A DNA stretch of 56,406 bases, filler included, from Jimgerdemannia flammicorona (taxonomy: Eukaryota), in the NCBI GenBank assembly GCA_003990765.1. It is 3 parts of 3 records of this genome, joined end to end, with 100 filler letters (N's around TTAATTAATTAA, not from the genome) between each part and the next. Parts side by side here need not be neighbours in the genome. Positions count along the whole stretch, not along the records: positions 18,841 to 37,580 come from RBNJ01002123.1; 2 more parts are not named here. The stretch is one strand, 5' to 3'. Both the position numbers and the translations under genes were made by a program. Shown here one piece after another: positions 1 to 52,529 of this stretch (position 1 is the first letter of the stretch; every line of letters begins with the position of its first letter). The notes under the pieces were generated by a model. That model saw only the letters and a program-made list of their open reading frames with translations. It had not been told where the DNA came from and searched no databases.

Positions 1-1529
1 AAAAAAAAAAAAAAAAAAAAAAAGAGTATAGAATTCTATATATCTCTAAAAATTTAACAAGAATAAATTAGTAAAGAAAATTTTAAAAAAAGAAAGACAA
101 ATGTGGAGGATTTCAGAAAAAAAACTCTAAGAAGCTTACTTTTTACCAATATTGCAATATATTCAATTTCTGTCCAAACTCTTCCTCTCTGCTTTTTATG
201 CTCCCTTTTTCTACTATCTAGTATTTGATATAATTCTTACAAATCTCATTAATATAGTAATGAAGTTTATTACTATAGAGATTTCTTATCACTATTATAA
301 TAATCTCTCTATATTCATTAATAATATAGTTCTCTTCATTGTTGAATACTTCAGTAGGTCAATGGGCTCCTTGATCAAGAATGATTGGCTCCAATTTGAA
401 TATAGACTCCCAAGCCTTAATAGTAATATTAGTATTACTTATGCTAAATAACTTACCCTTGAACTTCTCTATTTAATCAGATGCTAGACATAGTTAAACT
501 TGGATAACTTTGAATTCTCCTCTGCAGTAAAACTGAGTCTTGATCTGAATAGTGGGCTAAGTTAAGTATATGAATGAATTACATATAAGTATTATATAGA
601 AATTTTTAAGAGAGAATATATAAAAATGAAGTTAAATGAAATATAGAGTGAGTATTTAAAAAAGAGTATAAAAATGAGTTACATGCAGATGAGTTATACA
701 AGATTACTCATGAAGACTTACTTTTAATTCTTTTGAAATCTCTACCATATGATATATTGACTCAAAAGCTCAACTACCAAAGATATGTCTTATAACATTC
801 TCCAGCCTTTCTTTATCTTGATTATATATTATAAATAAAGTCAGCAGATTTCACTATAGAGCTATAGGCTCTAAGAAAAAAAGAAATAGTATAAAATAAA
901 CTTAGTTATGCTGTGAAAATTTAAATATAGATAAAAAGGCAATATATATTTACTATTAGCTACTCTAAAAAGGCTATTATATATATAGCTATAAGGTCTA
1001 TAAATTCTAAGATCTGAAGGATCACTGTGAGTTATTGTTAGAATTCTTTCTCATTTTCATCATCATCATTACCATCATTATTACTATTACTATCACTATT
1101 GCTACTATTACTTTAGCTCTTGATGAGCAGTTTATATACTGCCTATATGAGAAAGAATTTAATATTATTAGCAGAGAGTACTTTTCTATCTTGAATATTC
1201 TCTCTTTTGATAATTATTAGATAAAAAAATAAGTAGACTAATGTACAATTAAGAGCTGCTATTTATTTGTTTATAATATAGTAGGAGAAATAAAAAGAAG
1301 TATTGAGGAAAAACAAAGAAAAAAAGAATAAAGAAAGAGTAATATTATTAAAGATTTTAGAGAATAAAGAAAGGGTAATATTACTAAAGATTTTGAGTAA
1401 TCTAGATTAATTCAGATCAATCTAGATTAGATCATGGGACCAATCCAAGTTGATTTAAATATATCATATAACAAATCTGAATCAAATCTCATCTAGATAA
1501 ATTATATCTATTCAGAAGACTATTTTCAT

Positions 1530-2523
1530 GATTTCTAATATCTCTAGCTATATCTAGAGTATACTTGTTTTGATATAGCATCTTTTTCTTTTTGTTATCA
1601 TCAATAAGGAGTTATCTTGATGTATTATGAGTTATATAGAGAGTCAGCCAATCTTGGATATCAAGTGTCAGTATAGGTTACCTATAGGTCCTCAGTATCT
1701 ATAGTAGAGCCCTCTGAGCTTTGGTGAGCTTTTGGGAAGTATGGTTCTGGTATAGGTGACTATTTCTTAAGTAGAGTCAAGATAAGAGAAAAGATAACTA
1801 TTATAGATAGATAGAAGAGTGATTACAGTAGACTAGTCAGATGTCAGACTAGTGATAATTATCAGAACTAAAGTAGATACTATATCAGTGGAGTCTTCTG
1901 ATTAGTGTGAGATAGTTAGGTAGTAGATATTACTCTTAGTTACTCTTAGCATACAGCAGTATTACTTGAGGGTTATTAGAGAGTCTGAGGCTACTTAGAT
2001 CAGATATCTTAGCTATACTTAACTAGAACTAAGAGTTAATATAGCAATATGATCAAGATTTATAGACTTGAGTAATAGGATATTAGGAGTCTTCTCTTAT
2101 CTCATATATAAGTTTTTTACTTATCTTATCAGAGAGAATCAGATCTTATCTACTGTTCTGTATTTCTTGAGGGATTTTTTCTTTATCTATTACTATATTT
2201 GGAGTAGTAGAAGCTATTTTATTCAGCTCAGATATGGTCTTATATATATGTTGGAGTTTTGGATATATGCTTTCAATTATTGATATATAGTTGCTTATTC
2301 TCTAATAATAGGAAAAGTATAATATATAGAATGAGATATAGGCTAATATAAGCTCTATTATATCTGATATAGTTAGACTACTAGACAATAACTAACTTAG
2401 ATTAATAAGAGTATAGTACTTAGAAGAGGGGGGGGAGGGGAGAGAGTTTTGGTCTTTATAGTCTAGGTTTTCTTTTAATAAAAATCTATAAGACATAAAG
2501 TCTATCAAAAAAAAAAAAAAAAA
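1530..2523 (+). mobile_element. 5'-truncated, heavily mutated copy of the ~1.2-kb poly(A)-tailed non-autonomous retroposon
   Basis: Aligns by eye to 2651-3845 and 55238-56406 (gctatatctagagtatacttgttttg vs gctgcatctggggtgtacccattttg). Ends with aataaaa followed by poly(A) at 2507-2523. Confidence 0.8.
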
Positions 2524-2650
2524 TCTAATTCTCTTAATAATCATATTTTCTATAGCTTATCTCTTACTTCTATAGTCATGTGTAGATAAATTTAGATGAT
2601 GTTATCTATTTATATAGAAGTTCATTATAATAAAGAATAAATTATATGAT

Positions 2651-3845
2651 TTCTTTCTCTACTATCTTACCAGTTACAAGATTTGGTAGGTAATCTTCTG
2701 AGTCTCCTTTCTCCTATTATTACCCCCTCTATCTCAGATCGATTTGCTGTATCTGCAGGAGCATAGTGAGAGGAGGGCAATGGTGATAAGTTGTCTCTTT
2801 ATCAGTATCCAATCAGTATCTTCTTCACTTTTTTGCAGATTCTGCTACCTTCAGCTATATCTGGAGTATATCCATTTTGGTATGGCACCTTCTTCCTTTT
2901 GCTGCTACCAATAAGATGTTGTCTTAGAACATCATAGGTTACATAGAGAGTCAGCTAACCTTGAGTATCAAGTACCTAGTATAGGTTACCTACAGGTCCT
3001 CAGTACTTGTGGTAGGGCCCTCTAACTTTGGCAAGCTTCCTAATGAGTATAGTTCTGGTATAGGTGACTGTTTTTCAGATGTTATTGGGATAGGAGGAGA
3101 GATAGCTGTCACAGATAAGAGGAAGGGCAATTATGGTAAACCAGTAGGATATCAGGTTGGAGGTGATCATTGGGGCTGGAGCAGATGCTGTTTTAGTAGG
3201 GTCTTTTGATTGATATAGAGTGGTTAGGTAGTAGGTATTACTCTCAGCTTCTTTTGGCAATATATGGAATTGAGCTCTGATCATTGGGGGGAATTGGAGA
3301 GCTCAAGGCTACCTATTTCAGGCATTTTAGCTATACTCAACTAGAATTGAGAGCTAATATGGCAATATGATCAAGGTCTATAGACTTGAGTAGTGAGATA
3401 TTTGGGGTCTTCTCCTATCTTATATATAAGTTCTCTACTCATCTCATCTGGGAGAATCAGATCCTATCCACTATAATATACTTTGATGAGAGTTTTTTCT
3501 TTTGTCTATCATTCTCTTTGAGGTGGCAGGAGCTATTCTATTTGGCTTAAGCATAGCTTTATACATATATTGGGGTCTTAGGTGTACACTTTCAGTTATT
3601 GGCATATGACTGAGTTCTCCCTGGTAGTAGAGAGAGCATAGTATACAGAATGTGGTGTGGGCCACTATAGGCCCTATTGCATCTGGCATAGTTGAGCTAC
3701 TGAATAATAGCAAGCCTAGATTAATGAGGAGACAGTGCTTGATGAGTAGTAAGAGAGAGTTTTGGCCTATATAGTCTAGATTCCCTTCCAATAAAAATCC
3801 ACAGAAATCTGAGTCTGTAAAACAAAAAAATAATAAAAATAAATA
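2651..3845 (+). mobile_element. Full-length copy of the ~1.2-kb poly(A)-tailed retroposon
   Basis: Same 5' start (ttctctctactatcttaccagttacaag) and 3' end (ggcctatatagtctag...aataaaaatcc...A-rich tail) as the other copies. Possible TSD aataaattata on both sides. Confidence 0.85.
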
Positions 3846-3974
3846 AATTATAAAGTCTATATTTAATTTTTGAAACATTTTTTCTCTTTTATATTTTGAC
3901 ATTTTCATACAATTTCCACTTTACTTTTTTAGTGTAGAATTATTTATTTAATTATTCATATGATGAAGATCAGA

Positions 3975-4525: not shown

Positions 4526-4699
4526 CAGTTGGGATATCAGATATTAAGTGATAAAGAGATATCAGATGTGAGATATCAGATATTAATACATAGAACAGAT
4601 TGTGATACTAAGTGAATAATAGACTATACAGAATAAGATTGATATAAAAAAATCATCAAACTCTCACCATATTTAATTATATACCAAAGTGAGCCAAAT

Positions 4700-7424: not shown

Positions 7425-7829
7425 TATACTAGCTATAACTATAAGCTGTAAGCTATTATAAGCTACTATAAGCTACTATTAGTTACTATGAATTACTATA
7501 TTCAGCTAATATATCATTTATATCATTATTAGAGTCTACATTCTCCTCATCAGTAGAAATATATAGATATAAGTTTTTGAAAGTTCTCAATTAAAAATGT
7601 TAATTCTGGATAAGATTCAGAAAAGATAGAAGCTAAAAAAATCTTATAATATATTGATAGTGTTTTTGAATATAGTATACAGTACAATATAAGTCGACAT
7701 ACTTATAACTAACTCAAGATGCAGTCATTAGGAAAATTAACCAAGTACACCATAAAGCATGAACAGGTAACTAACTCAGTGTAGTGATAAACATCAACTT
7801 TGATTTCGAAAACAGTCCAGGGACCTTTT

Positions 7830-8670
7830 GATTGAATCTCCAGCACCATATTATGCGGTAGGTACACTGCGCCTGCTACTTGTGATGATATGGAATGAGG
7901 GTCGGGCCTAAAAACACCAATTGATCGTCCGGGAGGCCAGTTAATTCGGCCGCCGCGTGATGACCAGGATTTGGGCTTTGGCCAGCTTTACTCACGACGC
8001 GTCTGCCCACTTCCCAATTACAGACGGTAATTTCAGCGCGTCGGTGGACTTGGGATCTGGAATCTGGATTTTGGAGATGGCTCAAGACTATCCGAAATCC
8101 AAATTTGTAGGGGTGGACGCCGCAGCGGTATATCCTTCACGGGCGGATCTGCGCGTTCGACTACGTGTACCAGCGGTTCGTGCTGCCGGTGTTCACGCCA
8201 CAGGACTATCGGACCGCCGTCGCGGAGTACACGTGTGTGCTCAGGCTCGGTGGGTGGCTCGAGATGTTTGAGATGGCGCTTAAAACGGTGGAAAGACCGC
8301 CGCCGGACATGAACTTTTTCAAAGCAAGTGCGTATAAGGCTGTTATTTGTGACAGGATCAATGTTTTACTCTGGTTAGCACCATTTCGATAGCGCTTACG
8401 TCTGGGAGCTGGGTACCCTGCTCCCGTCCAATGACTTGGTGGACGTGGAGCAGGACTACATCTCACTCCGCTCGGGTGGGGTGAGCGAGCTATACGGCAG
8501 TGTCCGTACTTGTCGTGGCTGGCATTCGCGCCTGTGGTGCTGCCGCTGATGGAGGAATGAATACGGTTGACGAGTATGCACGACGTGAGCGGAACCTATT
8601 CGATCAGTTTAAATGTTATAAAAGCTGGCAATAAGGTCACATATGGTCGGGAGGAGGCCGCCGGGGATTA
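7830..8670 (+). pseudogene. Class I SAM-dependent methyltransferase (LaeA-like / Methyltransf_23/25 type), pseudogene
   Basis: Pieces LNLQHHIMR|gtaggt, DGNFSA, DLGSGIWILEMAQDYPKSKFVGVDA, FDYVYQRF..TPQDY..VLRLGGWLEMFE and DYIS.PLGWG lie in different frames. Segments normally found between GNFSAP and motif I, and before FDYV, appear deleted. Confidence 0.75.
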
Positions 8671-9928
8671 TGGGGCGGAGACAAAGGGGTGGTTGACATT
8701 TTAGGAGGTTTGTGGTTTCCGTTAGTAAATACGTATGTTGGACATATATGTATTGGCTTTCGCTGTATTATTCCGCATTTTTGATACTAGCATGCAAATT
8801 TTATTAAAAGTTTTCCTTTCACCGAAAAATTTCGTTTGGTATTGGTTTGTCGGTGCAGGTTAAAAAAAAAAAAAAAAAAAAAACATACGGGAACGGTGCT
8901 ATCTTGTGTGAGTTGTTTGTGCAGAACACTCTGATCATTACTCCTGTTTAATAGCTTATTCATCAGTAATTTGGTTAACTAATATAACTATCAGTTACTA
9001 CATCAATAATATATTTGACATTGATAATATATCTTTTATTCTGTATAAATGCCCAATTGAATCTCGCTGTTCGAACGTTCGGGTGAGGCCTGCGTCTGTT
9101 CATCTGTTATAATATTAGCACGTGTTCGTGAAATTGTTTCTGGAGCTGGAGGCGAAGTAGACAAGGACATCCGGGCGACGGTAATCGTGGCAAATGGGCT
9201 GGAGATTGAGTACCACGGCATCGACATGCTGTAAACGAACGAACTGAATGATTTGGGAGTGGAAACGCACGTCTGCCGTTTATTTACCGAATTACCACTG
9301 TCCATATCTGCTATGGAATGTACCATCCCGACCAACGCCCCGGCGGCGCAAACAACAGTAACCGAATGACGTTGTAAACAGATAGAATATAGAATATTAT
9401 AATTACTATCGCTTGTGAACACCTTCACCGGTTCGTGTGTGGCTACGATAAGACCCGACAGATTTTCTCACTGACGAGCAAGCTTAATGCAAAAAATCTA
9501 TTGACATGTCTGGAGCCGAGACACAAAACTAGTAACAACCACTTACCGACCCAAAGGTCGAGAAGCGAGTTAGGGAAATGAGAAGTGGCGAAAGTGTTCT
9601 GGAAGTCGTACTGCAAGGTTATTTATTTAGTCGCAGAATTTAGGTGTGACTTCAACACCGACGGACATGAACCCCTGAGTAAGGTATTCATACTTACACT
9701 TTAGCAAACGTAAAAGCAATTTCTTGTTCAGTTGCCTACCTCTTTTAGTTGTCACAAGTATGGGCGTAGCGCAACTTGATTCCAACACTCTCTCAGATCG
9801 ACAATCGTCTATACACGCCTGCATCGCCATTATCGCGTCTATCAGACAACCCTAGAACCAAACCCCACGATACATCCACATCATTCTGGCATAAACACCA
9901 CTTACACCCAAATCCCACCCGGCCCACC

Positions 9929-10713
9929 TCACGCCTTGCCCTTCGATTTCTCAGCCTTCGCTTTCTCAAGCTTCAATTTCTCAACCTCGGCCGCCAACCT
10001 ATCTATCTCCTTCGTCACTTCGGCGTTGAGTCCTTCCTTGTCCAGCCCTCTGGCCCTCATGACCTTCTCCTCCTCTTTGGCCCACCGCGCCTTGACTTTC
10101 TCGTTAATAACACCGCCTTTACCCCTGACCTCATTCGCCCCACTCTCCTTCTTCGTCTCATTCTCCTTCTTCGCCTCACTCTCCTTCCTCGCCTCCGTCC
10201 GCTCCCTCACCAGCCGCCGCACCACGCTCTCGAACCGCAGGTCGTGGGGGCCGTCCACGTACTCGATCACCGCCATCTGCGCGCAGTCACCTTTGCGAGG
10301 ACCTAGGGGCATTATGCGCGTGTAACCGCCAGAGCGCGAGGCGAAACGCGCCGCGAGGGGGCCGAAGAGCTTGGGGATGGTGATTTTTGGGTCCTGTTGG
10401 AATTGGAGGAAGTGGGTTGAAAGCTGTTCGGACGTGCGGCGGGGAGGGGTCGGAACAGCTTTTATAAAAGTGTTATCAAATAAATATCATTCACACGCAC
10501 CCTCAAATAGGCCAGCGCCTGCCTCCTCGCGTGCTCGTCGCCCTGCTTGCCTAGGGTAATCATCCTATCCGCCATCCTGCGCAGGTCCTTCGCCTTGGGT
10601 AGTGTTGTCGTTATACTCTCGTGTTGGATCAAGGATGAAGTGAGGTTGCGAAACATTGCTTTCCTGTGTGCAGAGGTGCGGTTGAAGCGGCGCAGGTGCT
10701 TGCCATGGTGCAT
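9929..10713 (-). CDS. MRPL8: Mitochondrial ribosomal protein bL17m (yeast Mrpl8 orthologue); 2 exons (10713-10501, 10393-9929), ~225 aa
   Basis: L17 signature [53 protein letters not shown] and [35 protein letters not shown]. The GT..CAG intron keeps the frame. Confidence 0.93.
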
Positions 10714-10898
10714 GGTTCCTTCTTTTTTGGGGGTTGAGGTTGAGGAGGAGGAGGAGGAGGAGGAGGAGGGTAAAATGGACAAAATGGACTGCTGGTGTTT
10801 TGTTCCTGATTTATTGCACGTGATCGCCGCTTGCATAAGTCTCGTCTCTCGGCATCCTTCTTCCCTCCAGCCTCGCCACACACCACTACAAAGACAAA
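10714..10898. promoter_or_regulatory. Candidate bidirectional promoter (185 bp between divergent ATGs) with a (GAG)9 run and a CACGTG box
   Basis: Head-to-head MRPL8/TLG2 start codons. (gag)n at 10742-10768; cacgtg at 10817-10822. Confidence 0.6.
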
Positions 10899-12833
10899 AT
10901 GGCCACCCGAAGCCGCACCCTCCTCTTCCTTCAGTACCGCAACACCTATGCCCGTTCGCACTCGCGCTCCGCCATAGCCTCCTCCGCCGCCTCCGCCGAG
11001 ACCGAGCGCGCCGGCCTGATGGAGAGCTCAGATCACGTCATTGAGCTATCAGTGCTACCGCCAAAATGGTAGGAAGGTGGATGTGCGAAAAGGAAGGGTG
11101 GGTGAGAAGGAAGGAGGAGAATGCATAAAAAGGGTTCTGTGGCATCTTCGGATCACATTTCGTTCACTATCACACACGGTTTTTCCATGCAGGGTAGACA
11201 TTGTGGACGAGTTTGACGAGAACGTCGAGAAAATCAAGGAAAACAGTATGTGCCTCCCAATTCAATTCCAACTGGTTCCTTTAAATCTTTACCCTCGAAC
11301 GTCGTCGTCGTTGGCCCTCTTGTTTTTATGTGCGGGTTGCCCAATTTTCGCCTTATTCACATCTCCCCATTCCAGTCACAAAGCTCGACGCGATGCACCG
11401 CAAGCACCTTCTCCCCGGCTTCGACGACCAGACCTCGGACGAGCAGGCGATCGAACGCCTGACAGACGACATCACGCATGTACGTACACCATGCCTAGTC
11501 GGGACATTTCACGTGTCGATCTCTCATCGTTTGTTAACACTCCAACCTCTCGCTTTGCGCCAGCAATTCCACGAGGCTCAACGCAAGGTGCAACGGATCA
11601 ATAACGAGAGCCGTGGTAATGCGTCGAGGCAGGAGCTGCTGATGAGCCGAAACATTCAGACCAGTCTGGCCACCAAGCTACAAGAGGTGTCGTCTGGGTT
11701 TAGGAAGGGACAGGCGCAATACCTGCAGAGTGGGTGTCGGAGGTGGGGTTGGGAGAACTGGAGGAATGGGGGGTGGGGGGGAAGAGGGGGTAGAGGAGTG
11801 GGAGGAAAGGGGACTAGGAGGTGGGGGGAAAGGGAGATGGAAGGGAGTGGGGATGGGGGGGAAAGGGAGGTGGAAGGGAGTGAGGAAAGGGAGGTGGAAG
11901 GGAGTGGGGATGGGGGGGAAAAGGGAGCGGAGGGTTGATGAGCGGAGGCGGTGGTAAAGGAAGGGTAGGGTGAAAGGTTGTCTCGGGTACATAGTGGTGG
12001 ATATAACAATCCGGTAGGATACTAGGGGGGAATTCTTCCGGAAAGTGCGTCCGCAATCTAATGCTCTCTTTCCATGGCCCAAACTCATCCGCAGAGCTGA
12101 GAGGCCGCGAAAACCGCAAATCCGACATTTTAGGCCTAGACACGAGCGTCGCAGACCTCCTCGTCGACGACGATGACGTAAATATGGTATGCTGTCCCAT
12201 CAAACCGTTTTCGCGTTGCCGCCGTCTCATTCCTAACCCCCTTCAAATTAAATAAAATAACCACACCCTTCCACTTTCACCTAACAGGGTTTCACAGAGT
12301 CGCAGATGGCGCAGCTAGAGTCAAACGAGGCGGCGGTTTCGCAGCGGGAGAGAGAAGTGAATGAAATCGCGCGGTCCATCTCGGCGCTGGCGGAGATCTT
12401 CAAAGAACTGCAGACACTCGTGATTGATCAGGGGACGTTATTGGATAGGATCGATTATAATATCGAGTCCATGTCCTACAATGTCAGGGAGGCGGCGAAG
12501 GAGTTGGATCAGGTGGGATGGCGTTGGGAAGAAAGGGGAGGATGAGGTTATGTGTGTGAGGGGGGAATACGGAAGCATTGAGGAGGTCGTTGGTGGGGGG
12601 GGGGGTGGAGGATCTTGTGCCCTTGTGCCGCTGTTGAGGTTGTTGGTTTACGACAAGTCGCCATCATGCCCAAGTGTCTTTACACCGTCATCTTACCTAT
12701 TTAATTTCTTCTTTTATTCTTACACGCGCAGGCAGAGACATACCAAAAGAACACGCGCAGCCGGCAGTGCATCTTCCTGCTCATCCTACTCATCTTCGGG
12801 CTGTTCATAATCCTCATCTTCAAGCCCCGGTGA
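10899..12833 (+). CDS. TLG2: Qa t-SNARE Tlg2/syntaxin-16; 7 exons (10899-11068, 11193-11245, 11376-11479, 11564-11729, 12095-12186, 12288-12512, 12732-12833)
   Basis: N-peptide [38 protein letters not shown] motif [41 protein letters not shown] and C-terminal [20 protein letters not shown]. All introns are GT-AG and in frame. Confidence 0.93.
11760..11935. repeat. Purine/G-rich tandem repeat inside TLG2 intron 4
   Basis: Repeated gaaagggag(a/g)tggaagggagtg(gggatggggggg) units. Confidence 0.75.
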
Positions 12834-13068
12834 TATATTCTGCGGGGTTGGGTGACTGGACTGGAAGAACTAGCGGGAGGGATATTTAGGTTACAGGAAT
12901 GGAAATGTTGTAGATAGATATTATACGTTCGAATTATTAGTTTCTCCACAACGGACACTGCTCGTGTAAGTACAATAATATAAGAGCGACTTTACCCACG
13001 TGACTGCTCTCTGACTCCGTGACTTGCATAGTTCCACCATCTTCTCCATCTTCACAACCGCCACTGCA

Positions 13069-14700
13069 ATGCAAAAGTGGAAACCCTTCCTCTCACTCTC
13101 GCGACTCCACCTCCACCCCGTCCTCGTGCGCCGCCACCTCTTAACCAGTGCCGCAGCAAGTTTCGCCGAGAGGGACCCACTACATGAGGGGGATCACTTC
13201 GCGCGCGTGCCTGACCGTGGGGTGCTTGAACTCGAGGGGCCAGATACAGTCAAGTTCTTGCAGGGACTGATCACGAACCATATGCCCAGGCTTGAAAACG
13301 GTGGGGAAGGGTTTTATGCTGGATTTTTGACACCACAGGTTGGTGAAGTTGGAGTTTCGTGCGTGGAAGAGAAGAGGTTAGGTGGGCCATGAGGGGTTTG
13401 GGAACCTCTCGCTCACCTCTCTCACTGCCTCATCTCCCCAGGGCCGCCTCCTGTATGATGTCTTTATTCACCCCCTAAACCTGGCTCCGAACTATTTCCC
13501 GCACCCAGTCTATCTGCTCGACTGCGCACAAGCCTCTCTCCCTTCCCTGCACGCACACCTTCGCCGTTACCTCCTCCGTTCCAAGGTTAAGCTACGCGAC
13601 GCCACCGACCGCTATGCGTTGTGGTCCGTGTGGGGCCCGCGCGCTCGCGACGTGTGGGAAGCGCCGCATCCCGAACCCGGGATTGTACCGAGAGGTGGCA
13701 TGGTGTTGAAGGTTAATAGGTGTGCAGAGGTCGGGTGTAGGGATCCTAGGTGGGAGGGGATGGGGCTGAGGGTTGTAGTTGAGAGGGAGGGAAAGCGTAG
13801 GTGGTTTTTTTTCCATTTGAATCTATTTGGATATATACATTGGATTTGACGGATATGTAGGTGTCACGTCAGTGTTGCTGAATTCCTTTTCATCTCATCT
13901 CATCCAACCCCCTTCCCACCCCAAGTCAATCTCCCCCCAACGTTCACCGAGCTTCCCGCGGAGGAGTACACGCTGCGGCGCATCTTGCACGGCATTCCCG
14001 AGGGCGTCGATGACTTGTGGCCAGGACAGGCGCTGCCACTTGAATCCAACTTCGACTACATGGGCGGAGGTGGGTTAGCTGGGTGAACGCACGTCTGCGG
14101 TAAGGGTGTGCGATGCGATGGAATATTGACGATAATCGCTTCACCAACTTGCCCCTTTCCCTCCGGCTCGCTTGTCATTCCCGGTGGAAGTTGACTTCCG
14201 CAAAGGCTGCTACGTCGGGCAGGAGCTCACGATCCGCACCTACCACACGGGCGTTGTCCGCAAGCGCATTGTGCCCGTCGCGCTTTACCGCGAGAGCGAG
14301 AGGTACTCGTACCCATTCCCTCATTTCTCACAATTTCTACCCATGTGCGCTGTCTCTTTACCAACTCCCACATTCACAACACTCCTACAGTCCCCCGACG
14401 ACCCTGACAGTCATCCGCAACCCCAAGACCCCCCCACTCTCGATCCCGCCCCCACAATCCGACATCCGCTCGCTCGCCCTCCCCCTGACAGCGCGGCCGG
14501 TTGGCCGTCTCTGCTCGAGTGTGCACAACATGGCACTAGCGCTCATGCGGCTCGATCACGTGTATCCGGAGGGGAAGGGCGTGCCAGAAGAAATGGTGGT
14601 CGAGGGGGCTGAGGGGGTTAGAGTCGGAGCCAGGCCTTTTTTGCCAGAATGGTGGCCGTGCGAGAAGGAGGGCGAAGGGAAGGATGGGGAAGGGGTGTAA
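13069..14700 (+). CDS. IBA57: Iba57/Caf17 (YgfZ/GcvT-like folate-binding mitochondrial Fe-S maturation factor); 5 exons (13069-13338, 13442-13796, 13926-14069, 14191-14302, 14391-14700)
   Basis: Mitochondrial-like presequence, [78 protein letters not shown] (KGCYxGQE signature), P.WWP. Confidence 0.93.
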
Positions 14701-15028
14701 GATGGGTGGTGGTGGTGTTGGAAATAATAGGATAGATGGGCGACGAGCGCTCAACAAGTATCTCATAAAGGACGTTTCGAAGATATCGTATATGCATATT
14801 ACGTGTGGTATATGAGTCCTCCAAGGAAGAAGGAAAAATGATCGTTCGTCGGTCTAGATTGGATCGTACGGTGGAATATGTATGTGATACAGAATGAGCC
14901 AGTTATGAATGACTCAAGATAATACACGGAAGCTCTCCCGTCTCACAAATGTTTCATCACAAAAGCGATATCCCAATCGCGACCCACCAATCCTCTCTCC
15001 AAATATCCAACTCCCAATCCAAATCCTC

Positions 15029-16409
15029 CTACTTCGCGCCATCCGTCTTCGTCTCGATAGTCAAGATCTTAAGACTCCCCGTAACAGTCTGTACCTTTTC
15101 TTCCTCGCTCAGAACGCCAGCAATTGTAGTCCCAACCTGCCTCTCGTCGCGTTCGTCGTCTGTCTCCCTCAGCTTATTGAGGCGGGCCTCCTCGACTTCA
15201 TGCAGCATCTGGTGGAATGACCGCTCCGCCATCGGCGAGAGCCCGAGGCCCGAATTCCGCCGGTGCTCGAACTTGCGCCAGTTCTCGCGTTGGATCTTCT
15301 CCTCCTCCCGGATCAGCAGGGGCTCGAAGTAGTTGGCCATCTGCACATCCTTCTGGTGAAGCCCGCATTTCTCGTAGAAAGGCACGTTGTGGAGCGTGCA
15401 GTTTAGGATTACTTTGTAGCAGCCGATAGCGCGGGCCGTGTATTGGAGTTGGTCGATTAGGCTGAGGAATGAGCAGAGTATGATGGTTAGGAGGCTATGA
15501 TCCGACATTAATGGCTACAATGACTGGGACAAATGCAGGTTTGATGATTACCGTTGGCCGAACTTTTTGCCCCGTTGTGAGTCATCCACAACGATGTCCT
15601 CGATGTGGCCAATCTGATTGATAGTGTGGATGTGGACGCAATGGAGAGATAAATGTCAGGCGAAACAACATATGAAATAGGAACCAAATAGTTCATTCCA
15701 TAGTTTCCAGTCCCATCAAGCTCTCAAATTTGCCAATATTCATTTTAGACCTTCGTTTCTTCATCTCTCTCGAACTCCCCCCCCCCTCCCTTCCCCAAAC
15801 CCACGAACCAATCAAGATCGAAGCGAGATCTACCTTGCCGCATTCGTGCAGGAACTTGTACTCGACTACCAGTGTTCCCACGGCAACAGTCCGGTCCGTC
15901 GACTCCTCGTGGATGACAGTGATGAAGTAGGTCTTGAGGTTGCGCATATGCTCGAAGCGTTCTGGAGAAGAGTGGGGGATAACGGCGTGAGATCGTGACC
16001 GTGAAATCCTCGCTTTCGCATTGCGGCTCCACGCTCCACAGAGTCCGATATGTGCAAAGGAGAAACGGAGATCACACACCGATGAATTGATCCTTGGACA
16101 CTTCACCGACGACAGAGAGCTGCGAGAGAAGTTTGAGGACACCTTTTGGGGAATGATGAGACGGGATGAGCAGATGGACTCGAACAGATCAACGCGAATT
16201 TCGCGGTCAAATAAGGGGCCGAACTCAGCTTCCCCATCCTCTATGTGCATCCCCGCCTTCATCCAAGCCCCCCTTATCGCCTCTCATCACTCACAATACT
16301 TACCTCGGTCGTAGTCATCAATCGCCAGAGGCCTGATCCTGTACCCTTTGGGTAGCTGTGCCTGAACGTTGGCGGAAATGAGCAAGTCGGCAAAGAGGTT
16401 GACGGTCAT
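15029..16409 (-). CDS. GNA1: Glucosamine-6-phosphate N-acetyltransferase (GNAT) with long C-terminal extension; 5 exons (16409-16304, 16142-16080, 15961-15834, 15613-15552, 15461-15029)
   Basis: LPKGYRIRPLAIDDYDRGVLKLLSQLSVVG, GTLVVEYKFLHECGKIGHIEDIVVDDSQRGKKFG, GCYKVILNC..NVPFYEKCG. Spliced frames are consistent. Confidence 0.92.
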
Positions 16410-17116
16410 GAGGTGGCGAGTGATTGGATGTTTGTGCGAAGTAGTGTGCAGAAGAGGGAATACGTTTTGACAAAGGGGGCGATGCGGGCTCTTCTGGGTT
16501 TATATGACAAGGGGCAACAAAAGCACAGTCACGCCTTCTATTCACGGCACCAGCCGCTATGTTGCCAGATAAGGCCTACCCGGGACACAGGGGCCCCTGC
16601 ACGTCGTCCAACAGTGGCACCACGCGTCGGCCATGCGATCCAAAGCAGGGACTGGCTTGCCTGCTTCGATACTCCTCTGGCGGGCGGAGTTGGGTTGCTA
16701 ATTAGGTTGCTATGGAAAAAGCGAGATGTGTTTATGAGATAATGTCGTGTGTACCACTTCGTGACGAGCAGGATCAGGTGGCCACTCCGTCGCTCCTGCT
16801 GGGATAGACACATTGGCCAGGCGGCTAACAAAGGGTTTGTACAAAAAGACCCTTGTTAAGGGAAACCCTGACCCAGACTATATTCGGATCATCTACTTGG
16901 CCATTTATTCGTAACTATGAAATGGTTACTATGTTTTGCATAACTGATATCATATCTACATAATTACAAATGCAGCGACTCCTGCTTTGGAAACTGTGCG
17001 CCAAACAAACGCCATTAGGAAACTCAGCCAATCACGGACAACTTTTGTTGGTGCCTCCTTTCTTCCCTTGAACCGTAACGCCTCCTGCAAACGAACAATA
17101 TATCCACAGACGCACC

Positions 17117-18046
17117 ATGTTCTCCCAAGCTATGAAGATGTCCCGCAGCAGGTGGATCCAGCTGCTCATATTCCTCGCCCTCCTCTCCGCAATTTTTCTC
17201 TCCCTCCCGCAGTCCACCTCCCCCCACCCCTGGAATAATCTCACTGGCGACCTTGTCGTCGACAACCTAGACGATTCCGACCCGTCCCCGGCGGTCCAGA
17301 AACACGCCTCCAACACCCCTCCGAACCCCTTAGACCGCACGCTAGGCTTCGGCCGTATCTACGTGATCAACATTGCCTCGCGCACAGACCGCCGCCAGGT
17401 CATGACCGCCATCGCCAAGTACCTCAACCTCGACTTCAGCTTCATCTCCGCGACACTAACGAACGACCCCGTAGTGCGCACACTACATAATCGTACAGGT
17501 CTCAAGCGCGTGGTGCTGGCGTGCTACCGGTCGCACATGTCCGTGTACGAAGATGTGGTGGCCAAGAACCTGACCTCGGCTCTCGTGCTCGAGGACGATA
17601 TCGACGTCGAGGCCGATCTCACTTCGCGCGTCGCCGCCCTGCTTCCATATCTTCCGGTCAGCTGGGAAATGCTCTATCTGGGCAACTGCAACCCGGGCAA
17701 TCCGCAAGAGTCCGACGGCGAACCGCTGCCCGGGAACCCGATCCTCAGGAAGTCTAAACTGCCCTACTGTACCCATTCGTACGCCGTCAGCGCCAAGGGT
17801 GCCGTGAAGTTACTCGGGTTGCTAGCCGAGCCGACTATTGCGGTTGATGTGCAGATCGCGAGGAATATTAGGGATGGGAAGATTGAGGCCTTTAGTGTTG
17901 TGCCTGTGATGACAACGCAGAGCAGGGATAGCCCGAGCGATATATCTAAGAATTGGAAGGAAATGCACGCCGACCTGCTCGAGGATTCGGTGCTGGCAAG
18001 GCTGAAGAAGGAGGGACTGTTGGAGAAGGGAAAGACTGAGGAGTGA
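17117..18046 (+). CDS. Glycosyltransferase family 25, type II membrane protein, intronless, 309 aa
   Basis: N-terminal TM/signal anchor. GT25 motifs IYVINIASRTDRR, ACYRSH, LVLEDD, WEMLYLG, CTHSYAVSAKGAVKLL, VD. Confidence 0.88.
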   Translation: MFSQAMKMSRSRWIQLLIFLALLSAIFLSLPQSTSPHPWNNLTGDLVVDNLDDSDPSPAVQKHASNTPPNPLDRTLGFGRIYVINIASRTDRRQVMTAIAKYLNLDFSFISATLTNDPVVRTLHNRTGLKRVVLACYRSHMSVYEDVVAKNLTSALVLEDDIDVEADLTSRVAALLPYLPVSWEMLYLGNCNPGNPQESDGEPLPGNPILRKSKLPYCTHSYAVSAKGAVKLLGLLAEPTIAVDVQIARNIRDGKIEAFSVVPVMTTQSRDSPSDISKNWKEMHADLLEDSVLARLKKEGLLEKGKTEE

Positions 18047-18740
18047 GAGGTAAAGAGGAAGTGTGGTGGGTAGGTGTAGTTGACATTGACATAGATACCT
18101 ATGTAATATACCTTTAATGGACACTGTGATTATCCCCAACATAGCAACAGGATCATTTTGTAATTCTCTGGAACCCGTAGTAATCGGATGGCTGTGAAGT
18201 TTTCGAACGATTGTGTACTGTCAGATGGTGCAGAAATTTAACTTGTCTGGTTGTTGTATACCAAATACTGTGGGAATAATGATTATCAGGCGGCATCAAG
18301 ATGGAGCCACTACCCGACGGCGTCGAACAATAGGATTGTTCTCGCGGGTGGAGAAAGGTACTACGGTAGGGAATCAATAGTGTGAATCCATTGACTAAGA
18401 TAACATGCAGCTTGAAATCATTTCCTTTTGAATGAGGTCGAGGCAATTAAAAAAAGTGACTTGGAAACATTATAACTTCCCCCATTATTATGTGTTGCTA
18501 AATTTATGGCTTGGCCGACTGCAGAGAATTACGACGTCACTAGGGAATGTCGAATGATACAAGATGGTATTTCAAAACGGGGCAAGGACAGTGGCTCGTC
18601 CTTGAGGGTTGTTGAGTGTGTCAAGCTTTCCGTCAAGGGATGAGCCGACGACGTGGTGCCGAAAGGAGGTAAGTATTTGGTGTTAGGTTGGCCCTTTGTT
18701 CTTGCCCCTCCCTTTAGTCTTACGTTTTTTTTTTTTAAAA

Positions 18741-18840
18741 NNNNNNNNNNNNNNNNNNNNNNNNNNNNNNNNNNNNNNNNNNNNTTAATTAATTAANNNN
18801 NNNNNNNNNNNNNNNNNNNNNNNNNNNNNNNNNNNNNNNN
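18741..18840. other. Artificial contig spacer N44-TTAATTAATTAA-N44
   Basis: Six-frame-stop linker between N runs, exactly 100 bp. Confidence 0.97.
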
Positions 18841-19252
18841 TTTTTTCGCTCAAAATTGATTTCCACTGCTTCCAACAAACCCAACAATTTCGAAGGATGT
18901 GTAAGAAACACGATGACAAAGCGAAAGAAAATGTAAAAATAAATGCCGAGTTTTTAAAATAGCCAATAATTAACTCAAAAAAAATTCTGTCCATCCAAAA
19001 TTTTAGTATGGGCCGTCTTCAGCGCTTAAAAGATCAGCATCCGACGCCCCTGATTCTGGATTGAAAATTTTATTGCATTAACATTCAATCACTATTTCAT
19101 CAGCAATACTACTACTTAGATAAATATACAGTAGATATTATAGCTTAGAGTTAAAATATAAAAATAAATAGTATTGCTAAAATGTTAACCAATTAGTCTG
19201 TAATCTGATGTAGACAAATTTGGTTGCAAAAACAAATAAAATAATACATATA

Positions 19253-22200
19253 TGTTGTGAATATGGAGTGGATACTGGAGAAGAGAGTGTTGTTTATTAT
19301 TCTAGATAGCACATATTTATGTATTGGAATCAGTGATGTAATCAAGAATAATATACATATATAAGCCACATATAAGCTACAAATTATCAAGATATAATAA
19401 TTTCAATACTTCTGCTCAATAAGATAATATACAAGAATACAATATAAGCAGAAATGTAAGAATGTAATGAAACTAAGAAAATTACTATAAAATGACTACA
19501 AATATACTAAAGAAACTATAGTGAAAATAAAGAATATAAACAGGTCCTAATATATAGTAAAAAAAAACTCAAATGTAGAAAAAAAGAAGAGGAAGAAGAA
19601 GAACTAGTAAATAATAATACAATGTAGAAAGATATAATATTTTTTTTTCTGCTTCTTTTGCATTATGAAATAATCTGTAATTATATATTACTAGTATATA
19701 TGTATATAATTTATTATTTTATTATAAAGTATCTATAAGACCTATTTCTTCTATATATATATCAAACTTTGTCTTTGAAAGGGTTTTTATAAGTAAATCT
19801 ACTATCATTTATTCTATGGAGAGGTATTTTAGATATATAGTCTTGTTTTTTATATATTATTTTATATAATAATACTATGTGTTAATATGCTTTATTCTGA
19901 TATAATATACTAGATTTTTTACTATAGCTATAGTTAATTAATTATTCTGATAAATAAGTATAGAGTGCTCTTAATCAAAGCTGAGCTTCTTTAATAGCTG
20001 ATATAGCCAAATGGCTTTCTTTGTTATTATTGACAATACTTGATACTCTACTTATATAGATAATATTGCTATTGAGCTCTGCTTACATAATTGTCAAGAT
20101 ATAATCTCTATATTTAACTGAAAGAAATATCTAATTATAGATTGATAGTTATCTAAGTCTCTGGTCTAATTAGTATTATATGTATACTGAATAGTTATAT
20201 ACTATTATTCTTATTATTATTCTGACTCAATCTACCTAGAGTGAGTATATAGTATACTATTCCTTGAGATATCTAAATATATACTTAACTACTGACTAAT
20301 ATATTTTATTATAGTATGATAAATACTATACTATCTTATTTATAATATATGAGATATCAGATCTTATTTCTAGTATAAGATACATAAGAGACCCAACTAC
20401 TTACTAATAGAGAATATTTATATAGATTTGTTTTTATCATTATTAGTCTTGAGTTTTCTTAATTTTATAGATATATCTATAAGAGTGCTGATGGGCTTAT
20501 ATTTATTCATGCTAAATTATTCTAAGATGATTTAAATATAAGCTGACTATAAGATATATATAGTATATATGATTCTATTATATATAATAGTTATTTTAAG
20601 TAAAAAAAATATATTACTTATATATATCTGTCATCTATAATTCTTGATATAGAGCTTCTTTAACTTTACTAAGTCTGTTTTTTATTATAATGATAATTAT
20701 ATCATCTATTCAAATAACCATAAAAGCTACTCTACCATCAGTATAATATTAAATATATATATATGTATTATCTGCTTTATAGTATATATGTATAAAGCTA
20801 TTATTAAGGAGATATTTATTAATTTTTTAGTTTTACAGATAGACTGCTTACTTGATATTATATAGTTATTTATATAGTTTATATACTGGCTCATTTTGAC
20901 TGTCATCTACTTTATATCCTTATAGTTAGTAAATATATAATTTTATATCTATATTACTATTGAGAAAAATTATCTTTATATCTATTTAATAGATCTTCAG
21001 ATTATATATAATACTGATTATAAGAAGTATTCTAAGTAAAGTAAGCTTAAATATGGGAAAAAATATCTCATCATTGTCTATGCCATAATTCTCTAAATAA
21101 CTCTTAGTAATGAAATAAGCTCTAAATTACTCTATATTTTTATTATTCTTATATTTGATCATATAGACCCAAAGTGATCTGATAGCTTATTAATTAGCTT
21201 AAAGAGGTATTAAGTCCTATATATTATTCTTGATAAGTGAATTATATTCCTTATCTATGGCTTACTTCTATCTCTTATTATTAGAGAAGATTATCACTTC
21301 ATTATATATATTTAGCTTACTGGAAATTATTATATATATATATTTATATACTTTAGTATAGCTTATATAGTCTCTATATTATTACTTAGAGCTTATTAGT
21401 ATATCCCAATAACTTTCTAAATTAGAATGAGTCTTGTTTCTGAACTTATACTTTGGCTTTTCCTTACTCTTAATAGATCTCTCATTATTGTTAGAGGTCT
21501 TACTATTCTTAATCTTCATTATTCTTGACTCAGATATATATAGTAGTTGAAAATAATTTTGCTTTATTGCTGAAGAGATTGGTACTAGTTACTATATTTA
21601 TACTGACTAGAATATAAAGAGAGTGATGAATATATCTATATAAAATTTCTAAACCTTTCTTTAAATTATAAATTATACAAGATTATTATATATTACTTAT
21701 ATATACATAGCTACTCTATAATGTTATATATCTTAGAGAGATCTCTTATATATAAGGGTCAGAACCTTATCTTTGTTACTGATATACTCTGCTGACATAC
21801 TTAAGAAATTTACATAATTCACCAGATCATCAATATGCTCAGTGTATTCATAAATACTCTTCTTAGACTTTATTTATAAATTGAATAGCTAAAATTTGAG
21901 ATAGAATCAATTTGATAAAAATGTTTTTATATGATGATTATATAAAATCTCTCATATATTATAAGCTATTATAGTATATTATAAGCTTTGTTTACTGGTT
22001 CAATAATATAAAAGTGATCTCTAATAATACTTAATAGTTATTTATAGTATTATAACCTTGAATCTATACTTATGATTTTATATACTTCTCTAATCTATAC
22101 TTATCCAGGAGATTGCTTATATAAATATCCAAATTATGTAATTATTATCATTAAAGACTAGAATAGACCTCTTGATTATATTATACTCACTATAAGAACT

Positions 22201-22490
22201 ATGACTATCATCATATATATATTGAGAGTACTCATACCTACTGTGACTATATTTGATATCTTGATATAGTGCATGTTTTTAGAGAATTATATTAAAGCCA
22301 CTTATATAGAACTAGCAGAACTTATAATCTTTATTGTAAATATAGAGTAGATATTAGAGAAAAGAGCATTGTTTATTATTCCAGATAGTGCATATTTATA
22401 TATTGGAATCAGTGATATAATTAAGAATGACATAGTTATATAAGCTACATATAAGCTACAAATTATTGAGATGTAATAATTTTATCAATA
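19253..22490 (+). mobile_element. Degenerate, internally deleted LTR retrotransposon; LTRs 19253-19408 and 22332-22490
   Basis: Two ~156-bp direct repeats starting TGTTGTGA/TATTGTAA and ending caata (mutated CAACA). Flanks atata/atatg fit a 5-bp TSD. Faint pol-like remnants inside (ADGL, GKKYLII); the strand call is tentative. Confidence 0.75.
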
Positions 22491-22669
22491 ATATGAAAAA
22501 ATTGATTTAAAATTTTCCAAAAAATAATTTTGTATATAAATTTTAAAAAATTTAGAAATAGTTTTTTGTAAGCATAATGCAGACTAACAGTTAAACAATA
22601 CTAAGTAGGTAACAAAGGCACTTCATTTTGATAAACTTATAACTAATAGTCCATCTAAAATCTCTTCAT

Positions 22670-24189
22670 TCAGCCTTGATGATCTTTTATCTGATACTTG
22701 CATCCTATATATAAGGTCACGGCAGGGTACACCTTGTCAGGTAGATTGGTCCAGGCTATCCCCTGATTGAATCCGTTGATCGAAAGGGCACAGGTATTGT
22801 CATTTAGGTTTAAATGAAGGGTTAAGACATCACCATTTTTAATCCGTTTTCCATAACCCTGAGATTTTCCTTGAACATAGGTATGGCTGTTAGAGCTGGA
22901 TTGGAAAGTCCACGAATACGGCCGGGTTGCCATGAAAGTATCAAAATGGGCGAATTCCTCTCCAACGAGCCCAACTTCACAGACGCCGATGCCGGAATAC
23001 GTTCCAATGGATTCAACGACAATATCCCATTCACATAGATTGTTTTGAACCTTCGTCCCAGGGACCGAAAGGCGTGCTGTCTGCTGCGATTTTCCTGAAT
23101 ACTCCACAACCTTGCCATCTTCCGAAATGACCACTTGAGAACCGACCTTCAATTGATCCCAATGGAGATCGGTACTGTGATGTGCCTTTCCGCGATATGC
23201 AGACGGATGACCCGTAGGGCATATGGTGTTCTTGCAGGCATGATGGCAAAATGCCAGGTAGTGTGGAGAGGTCTCCGCAAATGCGTCGACTGCCTCCACG
23301 AGGCTCTTGAGTCGATGTGGGCAGATGAGCATGAGGTCAAAGTAACTCATCATTTTGAGCAGCAAGGCGCGCGACGTACCATCTCCCAGCTGGATCATGC
23401 CGTCGCACCCCTCAACCATATCGTTGACATCATGCAGAACAGCACGGCGGTCCGAAGCCGACGGCGCATTCTCGTGGCGTGCCCAGACCCAGTCGATGAT
23501 ACATAACAACAGGTTGTGCTCGGGCGTGGAAAGGGCCGTTGCTTCAGTGAGGAGCCACATGAGGGACTCTTCGGAGAGGTCAGTCAGATCGCCAATAGCG
23601 AGCTTGTGAGCGCGGAAAGGGTTGAGGAGCACATCATAGAGGTCTTTGTTGGTTTCGCTCCATGGTATGGCGGCAACCGCTTCGTTGAGCAGCGACGAGG
23701 CGATACCTAAATCAGCGAGATCGTGCCCACGCTCTAGCACCATCTTCATGAGCTTGGGGAGAAGGAGAAAGCTTGCTGCACGGTATATTCCTACTGCAGT
23801 GGAAATGTTGGCGGTCGTGTCGATAGTTTCGGTGTGTATGAAGCCGAGAATGATGTTGAGCACCACGGAGGTGATGTCGTTGAGGACGACACGATGAGAC
23901 GAACTCTCTTGCATATTTCCGTAAAGCATCGCCTTGAAGACTGGGCACCTTTTAAGAGACCATTATGGAATTAAGTGTGTGAAAAATTTTGTGAAAAACG
24001 ATGGACATAATTAGACTGTGAAGAGTATCGAAACCAGACAAACCTTGAAGCTAGTATGGCACGGCATGCGCCTAGCTCGACACCATCAGCGCAGACGATA
24101 GTCACATCGTGGTAGGTTGGGTCCTTCCAGATGGAGGCAATATCATCCTTGAGACTAAAACCGCTATCAGATTGCTCGACCATGTTCAT
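22670..24189 (-). CDS. BTB/POZ(-BACK-like)-SPRY/B30.2 domain protein; 2 exons (24189 or 24183-24044, 23948-22670)
   Basis: BTB: YHDVTIVCADGVELGACRAILASRCPVFKAMLYGNMQES...ILGFIHT...IYRAASFLLLPKL. SPRY: EWDIVVE..VGLV..GYGKRIKNGDVLTLHLNLNDNTCALSING..GIAWTNLPDKVYPAVTL. Confidence 0.88.
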
Positions 24190-37758: not shown

Positions 37759-39839
37759 ACCGACTCTCTGGAAAAATAGCAAAACTGAAAGCAAGCTTAT
37801 TCTCCCCATACCACTGGTGGAAAACGAGGTATAGATATTTAAGAAGATTCCTTAGAGGAAATTCTCCAGCAGTGAATAATATCAGAATTACTTCTGGCAT
37901 ATGGCATCAAATATATGACCCTTTAATGTATAAATCTAATATGTTAGGCAACTGTACTATGAGCATACCACTTTCTGAGAAAAATAGACCTTACCGAACT
38001 TTTGATCTCCCAAATGGTATAACAATACTAGAACAAAATTAGAAGGCCCCTGATGAGGATGTTGAAAGCTAAGAAGGGGAGAGTTATAAGTGCACAATCT
38101 CCAAGTTACTGAAATCACATATCACCTACTGAACAAGCCACTGAAATCACACACAACCTCTAAACAAATCTGAAAATCACCTGCATGATTATGAAGCTGA
38201 GTCAAACCAAAGTCACAGTGTACAAAGCTAAGTCAATATGAAGTCATGGAATATAAGATTTACACAAACAGAATCTTACCAATTAGGACTAAATACATAT
38301 ATACTGAGCACTGAGATATGTTGAAACAGAAAACCAAAACAAACAACAAACCACAACTTCTGAACATACACAAACATGACCACTGAGATCTACAACTACA
38401 TCTATACTGATATTTGAAATATTATTATCAACTGAGCCACACTCCCTCTGCTCCTCATGAATATCTATAGCCTAACACCCCTCTACTTCGTGGAAGCCTG
38501 ATGGAATACCCTGAACATGCTTAGCAAGACCTACTGAATTAGACAAATCTCAAGCTACTACCAGATTGGCCACCTCCTAGAAGATATGGTTGAACATTAC
38601 CATAATACAGACATCATCCAGATGTCCCAACACCAGAAACTTATCACCCACAAACACCAAGAACTCTTTTATGAGTACAGCACCTTTATTCCCCATCTCC
38701 AAGTTACTATCAGTGAAATGGTTACTACTCTGTCCTATGGCCAAATCGATGATATGATACAAGAACTCAATCACAAGTACCTCAAATATGTTCAAACCAC
38801 AGACAGAACCTTCCCACACCCTGATGACCACATTCTGCAAATGCCCCAAATCAGATATGCCATAAAGGATGTCTATGATATAATCCGATTTGATGAAGAC
38901 AAAGCAGAAGACAATGATCCCTCTGATACTAACATGACCTCAAGCCAAAGATCTCTGCCAACTCTAATCATACTGCCAACCTTGCCAATGAACCTATAAT
39001 AGTTCATAACTATCTATGAGACCTATTGGAACAATGACCACTAGTATGAATACCAACCCATATTTATCTCTGATTACTTCAACTACAATGAAGAAACTAG
39101 AGAACACAACCTGTACCTTCAGACAACTCTCGAGATGGAACCAATAACTCCACCACCTGAATATGAGTGACATGAACTATAGTTACCAGTTTACTACAAC
39201 TCTGTGACTCATAGTGTCATAATCTATAGAAGGTACACAGACAGTGAATCTAATAAAAGCGAAGATGATGTATCCCTTCTTCATCTACCAACATCTTATC
39301 CAGCATATGAGACAGATGATGCTATCCTGTAGGATAGTGATGAAGTCCCAATGTATTACTATCTCAGTGAATAAGGAGAGTTAATCTATGAACAACTCTT
39401 CCTAGATAACTACAGTGCAACCAATCTATAAACCTTAGTAAATTTTAGTAAACTTTAAAATAATAAACAAATTCAAAAAATTAAAAATTAAAAAACTAGC
39501 TCTATTATATGATTCTTTGATTAATTTACTATAATGTAACAGAGCCAGAATTTTTATTTAATTTTTTTTTATATTTTTTTATAATTTTTAAAAATAATTT
39601 TTTTTATTATGTTAAGCCAAAATTTGGCCGCAGTCACATGTTTCTTAGAAAGGAAATCACTATATAAATTTTATAATACTATATAAATTTTATAATAAGA
39701 GATATTTTATTATTGTACAATTATTATTTATTTCTATTAATTTATTTATATTATATATTTTTATATTAGATATAATTACCTTCATTATTTATTTTTCAAA
39801 ACTTATTATTAATTTATTTATATTTATTTATTTTATATT

Positions 39840-41915: not shown

Positions 41916-41949
41916 TTTTTTTTTTTTTTTTTTTTTCAATTAATTGAAA

Positions 41950-43261: not shown

Positions 43262-44440
43262 CAGCAGAGTTTCTTACAGTCTTGCAGTACAAATAGTAGT
43301 TTATTATTAATAGTACTCAAAGAGGTTGACTTCAGATTAAGGTTCTAGCCTAATATATATACATGTATATATCTAGTCAACTTTTGGTATTATAACAGAT
43401 AATAGAGACAGACCAATTATATACTTAGGGAGAGGCAGAAGACTTGTAATGATTTTGACATAGTTGAGATGTTTTTTTTTGACACACATGATCACATGAC
43501 CATTGATCACATGTTGCCAGAAGGTCAGAAATTGGCTGCAGTTACAATGATTTGATCACGTGAGATTGGTCACACTGTACTTCATCAGAGATAATGTCAT
43601 CAATAGTGATGTTATCGAAGACTATCCAGACAGCATCTAAATCTATAGATAGCTTAGCAGTCATAGTATAGTTAGATTAGCCTTGTACAATGTGACTGTG
43701 AACTGACTCAGCAGTCAGACGATCTCTTGATATATTAGATCACACTTGTACTATATAACTACATTCTGACTCAGCAAAGCACTAAGTGCTATATCCATAT
43801 TCAGCATAGCCCAGATAGCCTCTCACTAGTATAAATACCCCCTCTCCCAGACCTCAGAATCTCAGACTTAAACAGACTCAAACACACAAGAACATTTCTG
43901 AATACTTCTCCACAATATCTCTTCATACAACTACTCCTAGTATAGCAATATCATAAATAACAAATAAATCTATTTAATAACCCACAAACCACTCTTAAGT
44001 AAATCCACTCTCCATTAGGTCCCACTCCTAACCCTGTTATGAAATTTCCTAATTGGGTATTGTCTGCAGCGATATGCCAATTTAACTAAGCTGGTCTTAG
44101 TTTCTTGAACTTTCTGAAATATGGAAAATCCTGAATATCTAGAACTAGTCCAAAAAAAGACTTTGAGTTGAGATGTCAATCTGATCTTGAAATCAATAAG
44201 CGTAGAGGATGTACTCCATATGAAATTGATCTTGACCTTAAGAAAATAGTCTTTCAGAATATCCAGAACTTCCAGAAAACCCTTCCAGAACTACATAATA
44301 GTTACTCTAAAAAGCAACCCTCTTACACAGTTCCTGCCAATAAGCTGATATATTTTGTTTGAAGTTTCTTTTAGTTTTATTGTTTATTATATATAACTTT
44401 GAGAATTCAATGAGAATATTGATTCTTAAGGAGGAGGAGA

Positions 44441-52439: not shown

Positions 52440-52529
<90 letters not shown>

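Follow-up and report, generated by a model that had tools for sequence, protein, structure and literature searches.

One-way C-to-T decay of repeats, at CpG and beyond, around a Ty1/copia relic of Jimgerdemannia flammicorona

Results

The copia relic

The window is the whole stretch of DNA analysed, 56,406 nucleotides with filler included, from the Jimgerdemannia flammicorona assembly GCA_003990765.1. The interval 19253-22490 consists of an internally deleted Ty1/copia relic on the minus strand. It presents the following features:

19248..19252, no strand: left target-site duplication ATATA, adjoining the repeat externally
19253..19408, minus strand: 3' LTR (left copy, 156 bp), a direct repeat with plus-strand termini TGTTG...CAATA
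19409..19419, minus strand: likely polypurine tract preceding the 3' LTR, a purine-rich minus-strand run whose role is suggested by its position
19780..20145, minus strand: decayed region 3' of the reverse transcriptase (RT), in another frame, found by tblastn of copia relatives; putative RNase H
20605..21282, minus strand: decayed copia RT (RVT_2, Pfam PF07727, E 4e-23), to which copia relatives align
22310..22331, minus strand: likely decayed primer-binding site after the 5' LTR, placed by position only
22332..22490, minus strand: 5' LTR (right copy, 159 bp), whose plus strand begins with TATTG against TGTTG in the left copy
22491..22495, no strand: right target-site duplication ATATG

We take 19780..20145 to be RNase H from the gene order, and 22310..22331 to correspond to a primer-binding site from the layout, that we assume for copia elements. 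Both the LTR and target-site structure and the RVT_2 domain place the element in the Ty1/copia class. The two target-site copies agree at four of five positions. Their sole mismatch, G/A in a TpG context, lies just beyond the repeat ends. Under the TG...CA rule, one LTR terminus is intact and the other three read TA, presumably after C>T changes.

The RT region has 18 in-frame stops in 226 codons. Alignments of copia relatives span from about 19700 to about 21500 (tblastn), and among the 25 commonest spans none reaches beyond about 21500. Upstream of the RT, the three minus frames gave no Pfam match for gag, protease or integrase. Since these domains were not detected and only about 830 bp lie upstream of the RT, the relic is internally deleted. 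It conserves no CpG, where 40 were expected.

The host and its genes

A gene island served both as the control and for placing the host:

7700..18700, no strand: genes for L17, a SNARE (TLG2-like), an IBA57-like protein and glycosyltransferase family 25 (GT25); CpG observed/expected (o/e) 0.94

A further gene of the island presumably is GNA1, a putative name that comes from the initial reading of the sequence alone. Protein matches identify the host, an early-diverging and root-associated fungus, as J. flammicorona or something very closely related to it, within Endogonales (Mucoromycota). For the IBA57-like exon, 80% of the query aligns at 100% identity with a J. flammicorona protein. Of eight tblastn segments of this protein, five are 95-100% identical to the window. 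The remaining ones, at 60-86%, probably cross introns. The best named matches of the GT25 gene are from Endogone and Umbelopsis, at 45-46%. The Mucoromycota host supposed in the earlier note is thus borne out by exons at 95-100% identity. It follows that the repeat decay described below is not ordinary ascomycete RIP, and the ascomycete origin that the note had named as a refutation does not apply to a member of the Endogonales.

Two genes of the island deserve a remark. The GT25 gene (17117-18046, plus strand) has a single exon and few close relatives, the named ones being mainly from Endogone, Umbelopsis and Racocetra. The public gene model P0012 (10899-14083, plus strand) fuses the SNARE (TLG2-like) and IBA57-like genes into 678 aa. 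It is likely mis-predicted, because the Umbelopsis IBA57 homologues have only 385-387 aa.

Confinement to repeats

Composition served as the control, with repeats and unique DNA compared within the window. The CpG o/e is 0.00-0.21 in the repeat blocks, against 0.77-1.29 in unique intergenic stretches and 0.94 in the gene island. Genes therefore keep their CpG, as had been noted earlier. The CT/(CA+CC) index is 2.0 in the element and 1.2-2.5 in five other repeat blocks; two blocks have 0.91 and 0.55. In unique intergenic stretches it is 0.66-0.83.

The depletion extends a short way past the element:

19046..22720, no strand: CpG-free domain (3,675 bp) that continues past the LTRs for about 207 and 230 bp

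No CpG occurs in either flank, where 3.0 and 3.1 would be expected (P about 0.05 for each flank). The C>T change stays within repeats and a halo of some 200 bp around them.

An intact BTB/POZ-SPRY gene (22670-24264, minus strand) ends within the CpG-free halo; its stop is 180 bp away from the 5' LTR. Looking for duplicates of this gene as a test of a homology trigger, we found no close paralogue. The search gave five matches, all distant (39-45%) and unnamed.

Comparison of the two LTRs

All mutation counts were drawn from this one window. Its self-BLAST aligns the LTRs as a 149-bp direct repeat (19255-19403 / 22334-22482, 85.2% identity, ungapped, E 1e-42). They differ at 23 of 151 ungapped columns, by 21 transitions and two adjacent transversions (transition excess P=0.007 against a 2:1 ratio). 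This agrees with the earlier claim that the LTRs differ almost solely by transitions, and the six examples quoted for it were all found.

Context was counted at sites with a conserved 3' neighbour. At CpA/TpG, 13 of 21 sites differ, so that the many TG>TA and CA>TA changes described before are real. At CpT/ApG, 2 of 14 differ (CpA versus CpT, P=0.007), and at CpC, 0 of 1. With this single CpC site, the LTR pair is unable to reveal CpC targeting. Three further sites are CA/TG pairs, former CpG, which had likewise been recognized.

Mutation spectrum in the other repeats

The other repeats used in the comparison are listed here:

1523..2530, plus strand: family A, copy A1, the most decayed (GC 0.30), from self-comparison
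2640..3855, plus strand: family A, copy A2, from self-comparison
44790..45950, minus strand: family A, copy A3, from self-comparison
52526..53690, minus strand: family A, copy A4, from self-comparison
55225..56406, plus strand: family A, copy A5, the least decayed (GC 0.51, 16 CpG left)
38134..39413, plus strand, with inverted partner 47048-48326: repeat pair B, 196 transitions and 16 transversions
43578..44328, plus strand, with inverted partner 46311-47050: repeat pair C, 79 transitions and 8 transversions

Family A is a GC-rich repeat of 1.2 kb in five copies, which ends at long A/T homopolymers. One frame of copy A5 and the six frames of pair B gave no Pfam match. The transition/transversion ratio is 4.5-12 in dispersed pairs and 2.6-7 in tandem pairs.

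In these repeats, the C-to-T changes are one-way, affect both strands and follow the order CpG >> CpA = CpC >> CpT. We estimated the rates in family A by a star-tree likelihood fit to 404 columns of the five copies. Relative to CpA, the rate is 0.87 at CpC (95% CI 0.66-1.15), 0.12 at CpT (95% CI 0.08-0.17) and 0.04 for T>C (95% CI 0.015-0.06), with intervals somewhat too narrow because the copies do not form a perfect star. The CpG rate, taken from the two least decayed copies, is about 6-9 times that of CpA. Between copies, the load varies about 15-fold (0.09 to 1.37). We also counted the family A sites where two or more copies have C. Of these, 10/96 CpA, 7/52 CpC and 70/98 CpT sites are intact in all five copies.

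For a pooled spectrum, we retained five independent pairs of 21. Fourteen overlapped the same families, and two were short tandem pairs. The pooled pairs differ at 204/616 CpA, 90/336 CpC and 51/483 CpT sites. In the two short tandem pairs left out, the values are CpA 4/23, CpC 3/9, CpT 0/13 and CpA 13/15, CpC 1/5, CpT 7/30. The earlier note saw one pattern throughout the repeats. Every repeat block is indeed affected. The pattern is not specific to CpA, for CpG is hardest hit, CpC is close to CpA and CpT is spared.

Three simpler models were rejected by simulation. Decay at CpG only gave CpA/CpC/CpT values of 0.035/0.036/0.036, and CpG plus a uniform C>T process gave 0.30/0.30/0.29; the observed values are 0.38/0.34/0.08. 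CpG plus CpA only fails at CpC. The full account by successive CpG decay (CG>TG>TA), which the note had set as a refutation of its claim, thus fails, with 0.035 simulated against 0.38 observed at CpA. The second step cannot rescue it, because TG>TA, read from the opposite strand, is itself CpA>TpA. The best-fitting simulated model predicts 1-2 intact CpC sites of about 35, where 7/52 were observed; it therefore captures site heterogeneity or shared history incompletely.

A codon-level test in the copia ORF gives the same direction. The relatives have 103 conserved residues; the element retains 55 of them and departs from 48. For 37 of the changed residues, C>T/G>A changes alone suffice (2000 shuffles gave a mean of 7.2 and a maximum of 16), and for one the reverse direction does. 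The positions Trp 2, Met 3, His 1 and Gln 1 are CpA by construction, with no CpG at the changed base, and 10 of 16 changed; the source residues of this tally are inferred from relatives 24-50% identical. CpG decay fails to account for the C>T changes that the repeats carry outside CpG.

Strand pattern

At non-CpG sites, we found no same-strand runs in any of the five family A copies (P 0.17-0.996). In pairs B and C, strand counts track base content. The CpG sites of family A show a strand skew that varies by copy, with CA:TG of 36:12, 26:9, 22:35, 26:21 and 15:14, a heterogeneity that 0 of 300 symmetric simulations matched; the skew was spotted post hoc, in one family with shared history. The CpG strand ratio is near even elsewhere (pair B 10:7, pair C 5:3, LTRs 2:1). 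Copy A1 also has C>T above G>A (68/102 versus 121/241, P=0.006).

The copies of family A share changes (odds ratios 1.4-4.5), so the CpG skew may be inherited. We regard it as a lead for burst-like CpG loss, which it fits better than slow decay.

Discussion

Known systems

According to PMC9963178, RID-1 occurs in Pezizomycotina only, and Endogonales have DIM-2-like homologues. Three of the 83 C-5 methylase rows in its Dataset S1 belong to J. flammicorona. All are DIM2, and none is RID1, DNMT1 or DNMT5. Endogone has DNMT1 plus two DIM2. The DIM-2 labels come from reciprocal BLAST at 24-29% identity. As the published J. flammicorona assembly is 70% BUSCO-complete (PMC12543289), the absent RID and DNMT1 rows are weak evidence.

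The one-way change of C:G to T:A, confined to repeats and on both strands, is as in canonical RIP. The repeats also resemble those of Neurospora crassa and other Pezizomycotina (RID and DIM-2 pathways) in their AT-rich dead elements, spill into flanks and unequal copy loads. However, CpA is not the preferred target (CpG 6-9 : CpA 1 : CpC 0.87 : CpT 0.12), RID is not listed, and non-CpG strand runs are absent. Besides, the J. flammicorona genome stays at 73% repeats with many near-identical copies. Given the missing CpA preference and the absence of a RID row, we call the process RIP-like in outcome and do not file it as RIP. Of the interpretation in the earlier note, the part upheld is a non-CpG C>T change limited to repeats and beyond CpG decay. 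A CpA-biased RIP is not supported.

In Zymoseptoria, Dim2-dependent mitotic C>T occurs in repeats, as CA>TA with CpG spared (PMC8016269). As there, the change is repeat-confined, includes CpA and is accompanied by a listed DIM-2-type enzyme, in a system where the sexual cycle is not needed. Nevertheless, more than 98% of C>T falls at CpA in Zymoseptoria, while here CpG is fastest, CpC equals CpA, and a CpA-only spectrum with CpG spared is not what we found. Zymoseptoria also has RID, for which J. flammicorona has no row.

The TpCpG hypermutation of Pucciniomycotina and the CpG decay of other Basidiomycota (PMC3318451) share CpG as the main transposon target. Non-CpG change is not raised there, whereas here CpA and CpC are 7-8 times CpT. 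Within Mucoromycota, Phycomyces blakesleeanus has DIM2 plus DNMT1, with both CG and CHH methylation on its transposons (PMC11258239). In our window, the mutational scar alone is seen. Further related literature includes PMC7862722, PMC7928374 and PMC11451569.

A k-mer screen of 1,239 genomes assigns RIP-like signatures only to ascomycetes (PMC12543289). It scores J. flammicorona as 'no_rip', with 23 k-mers enriched in non-coding DNA and none (0) enriched in repeats; TATA is four-fold enriched in non-coding DNA. This screen weighs repeats against all non-coding DNA, and would have little power where the non-coding DNA is mostly repeat. Its supplement holds 37,472 J. flammicorona repeat pairs of at least 1 kb at 95-100% identity. 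Together with the 73% repeats, these near-identical pairs fit a slow process.

Explanations for the decay

As the probable cause, we favour DIM-2-type methylation of the repeats, independent of RID, with later deamination of the methylated cytosines. The link to the enzyme is suggested by the methyltransferase rows. DIM-2-like methyltransferases would mark repeat chromatin without RID, and an unassembled DNMT1 would perhaps contribute CpG methylation. Marked cytosines would become thymine over time, by spontaneous or enzyme-assisted deamination. The order of methylation contexts might mirror the mutation order, CpG >> CpA = CpC >> CpT. The process seems gradual and guided by chromatin, rather than triggered by homology pairing, and a short spread of the marking could account for the flanks.

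Some observations speak against this explanation. The contexts of Zymoseptoria Dim2 (CpA, not CpG) and Neurospora DIM-2 (CpT) differ from ours, where CpT is spared. To our knowledge, no characterised DIM-2 shows the order CpG >> CpA = CpC >> CpT. This is the weak point both of the DIM-2 explanation and of the homology-triggered one considered below. The per-copy CpG skew of family A and the C>T excess of copy A1 also count against this explanation. The preference of Neurospora DIM-2 for methylating CpT is described in PMC13297926 and PMC8016269.

A further reading, possible but held tentatively, is an enzyme-driven and RID-independent repeat mutator of Endogonales. It would have expanded DIM-2-like paralogues, its own code (CpG > CpA = CpC, CpT spared) and strand-coordinated CpG bursts. 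If it were true, repeat mutagenesis would predate Dikarya with RID as a later add-on, and k-mer screens would miss such mutators in repeat-saturated genomes.

The main rival, which we consider rather unlikely, is homology-based recognition of duplicated DNA, with bursts of mutation that would probably fall near the sexual stage and depend on a RID-independent DIM-2 pathway or another enzyme. Such a pathway exists in Neurospora (10.1101/344036). The very high transition excess with few transversions, the skewed CpG loss of family A, and the flank halo with an altered target-site duplication are consistent with it. Yet non-CpG sites have no strand runs, although many rounds would blur them. The CpG skew is absent in pairs B and C and in the LTRs, may be inherited in family A, and many near-identical repeats persist genome-wide (PMC12543289).

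Decay of methylated CpG plus a genome-wide AT-biased mutation, with genes protected by selection only, is improbable and largely refuted. CpG is the fastest context, and CG methylation of Mucoromycota transposons is known (PMC11258239). But the CpG-only and CpG-plus-uniform simulations fail, and unique intergenic DNA has neither a CpT excess nor a collapse of GC. The title of Clutterbuck 2017 reportedly names CG loss in transposons of 'some lower fungi', which would suit the same explanation.

AID/APOBEC-like cytidine deaminases read the 5' base. One of these, editing transposon cDNA or silenced DNA, could produce one-way C>T in several contexts. We judge it very improbable. Both strands are affected in proportion to base content, the LTR divergence post-dates insertion, and here the 3' base sets the rate, with TpC not favoured (TCA 0.26 against ACA 0.49 and GCA 0.48).

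Finally, an N gap (18741-18840) separates the gene island from the element, but ordinary RIP in repeats from an ascomycete contaminant or a mis-join is hardly credible, with a spectrum that is not CpA-specific, an element that sits with its target-site duplication between CpG-rich unique flanks, and the same signature in every repeat block of the window.

Direct comparison of copies thus reveals that repeats have decayed strongly by C>T outside CpG in a species scored as 'no_rip' (PMC12543289). If the link to DIM-2 holds, this arm of repeat mutagenesis would be older than Dikarya. Whether RID or DIM-2 came first would then be testable in Endogonales and Glomeromycota, by methylome and comparative work. 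This study contributes rates with intervals, the codon-level copia test, the per-copy CpG skew and the species-level methyltransferase rows. Our literature search found no report of this spectrum in Endogonales; Clutterbuck 2017 and Chang et al. 2019, outside that search, may bear on novelty.

Other observations in the window

No tRNA was found in the window. A CpG-free tandem array with units of 9/18/27 nt lies at 3950-4570. At 33000-36000 (minus strand), a decayed LINE-type ORF (RVT_1, E 3.7e-16) has 68 stops in 1000 codons and none (0) of the four CGN codons. A degenerate tandem array at 41949-43005 has o/e values of 0.15 for CpG, 1.79 for CpA and 0.39 for TpA. Its copies differ at CpA 35/128, CpC 8/32 and CpT 9/54, the same pattern of CpA = CpC > CpT.
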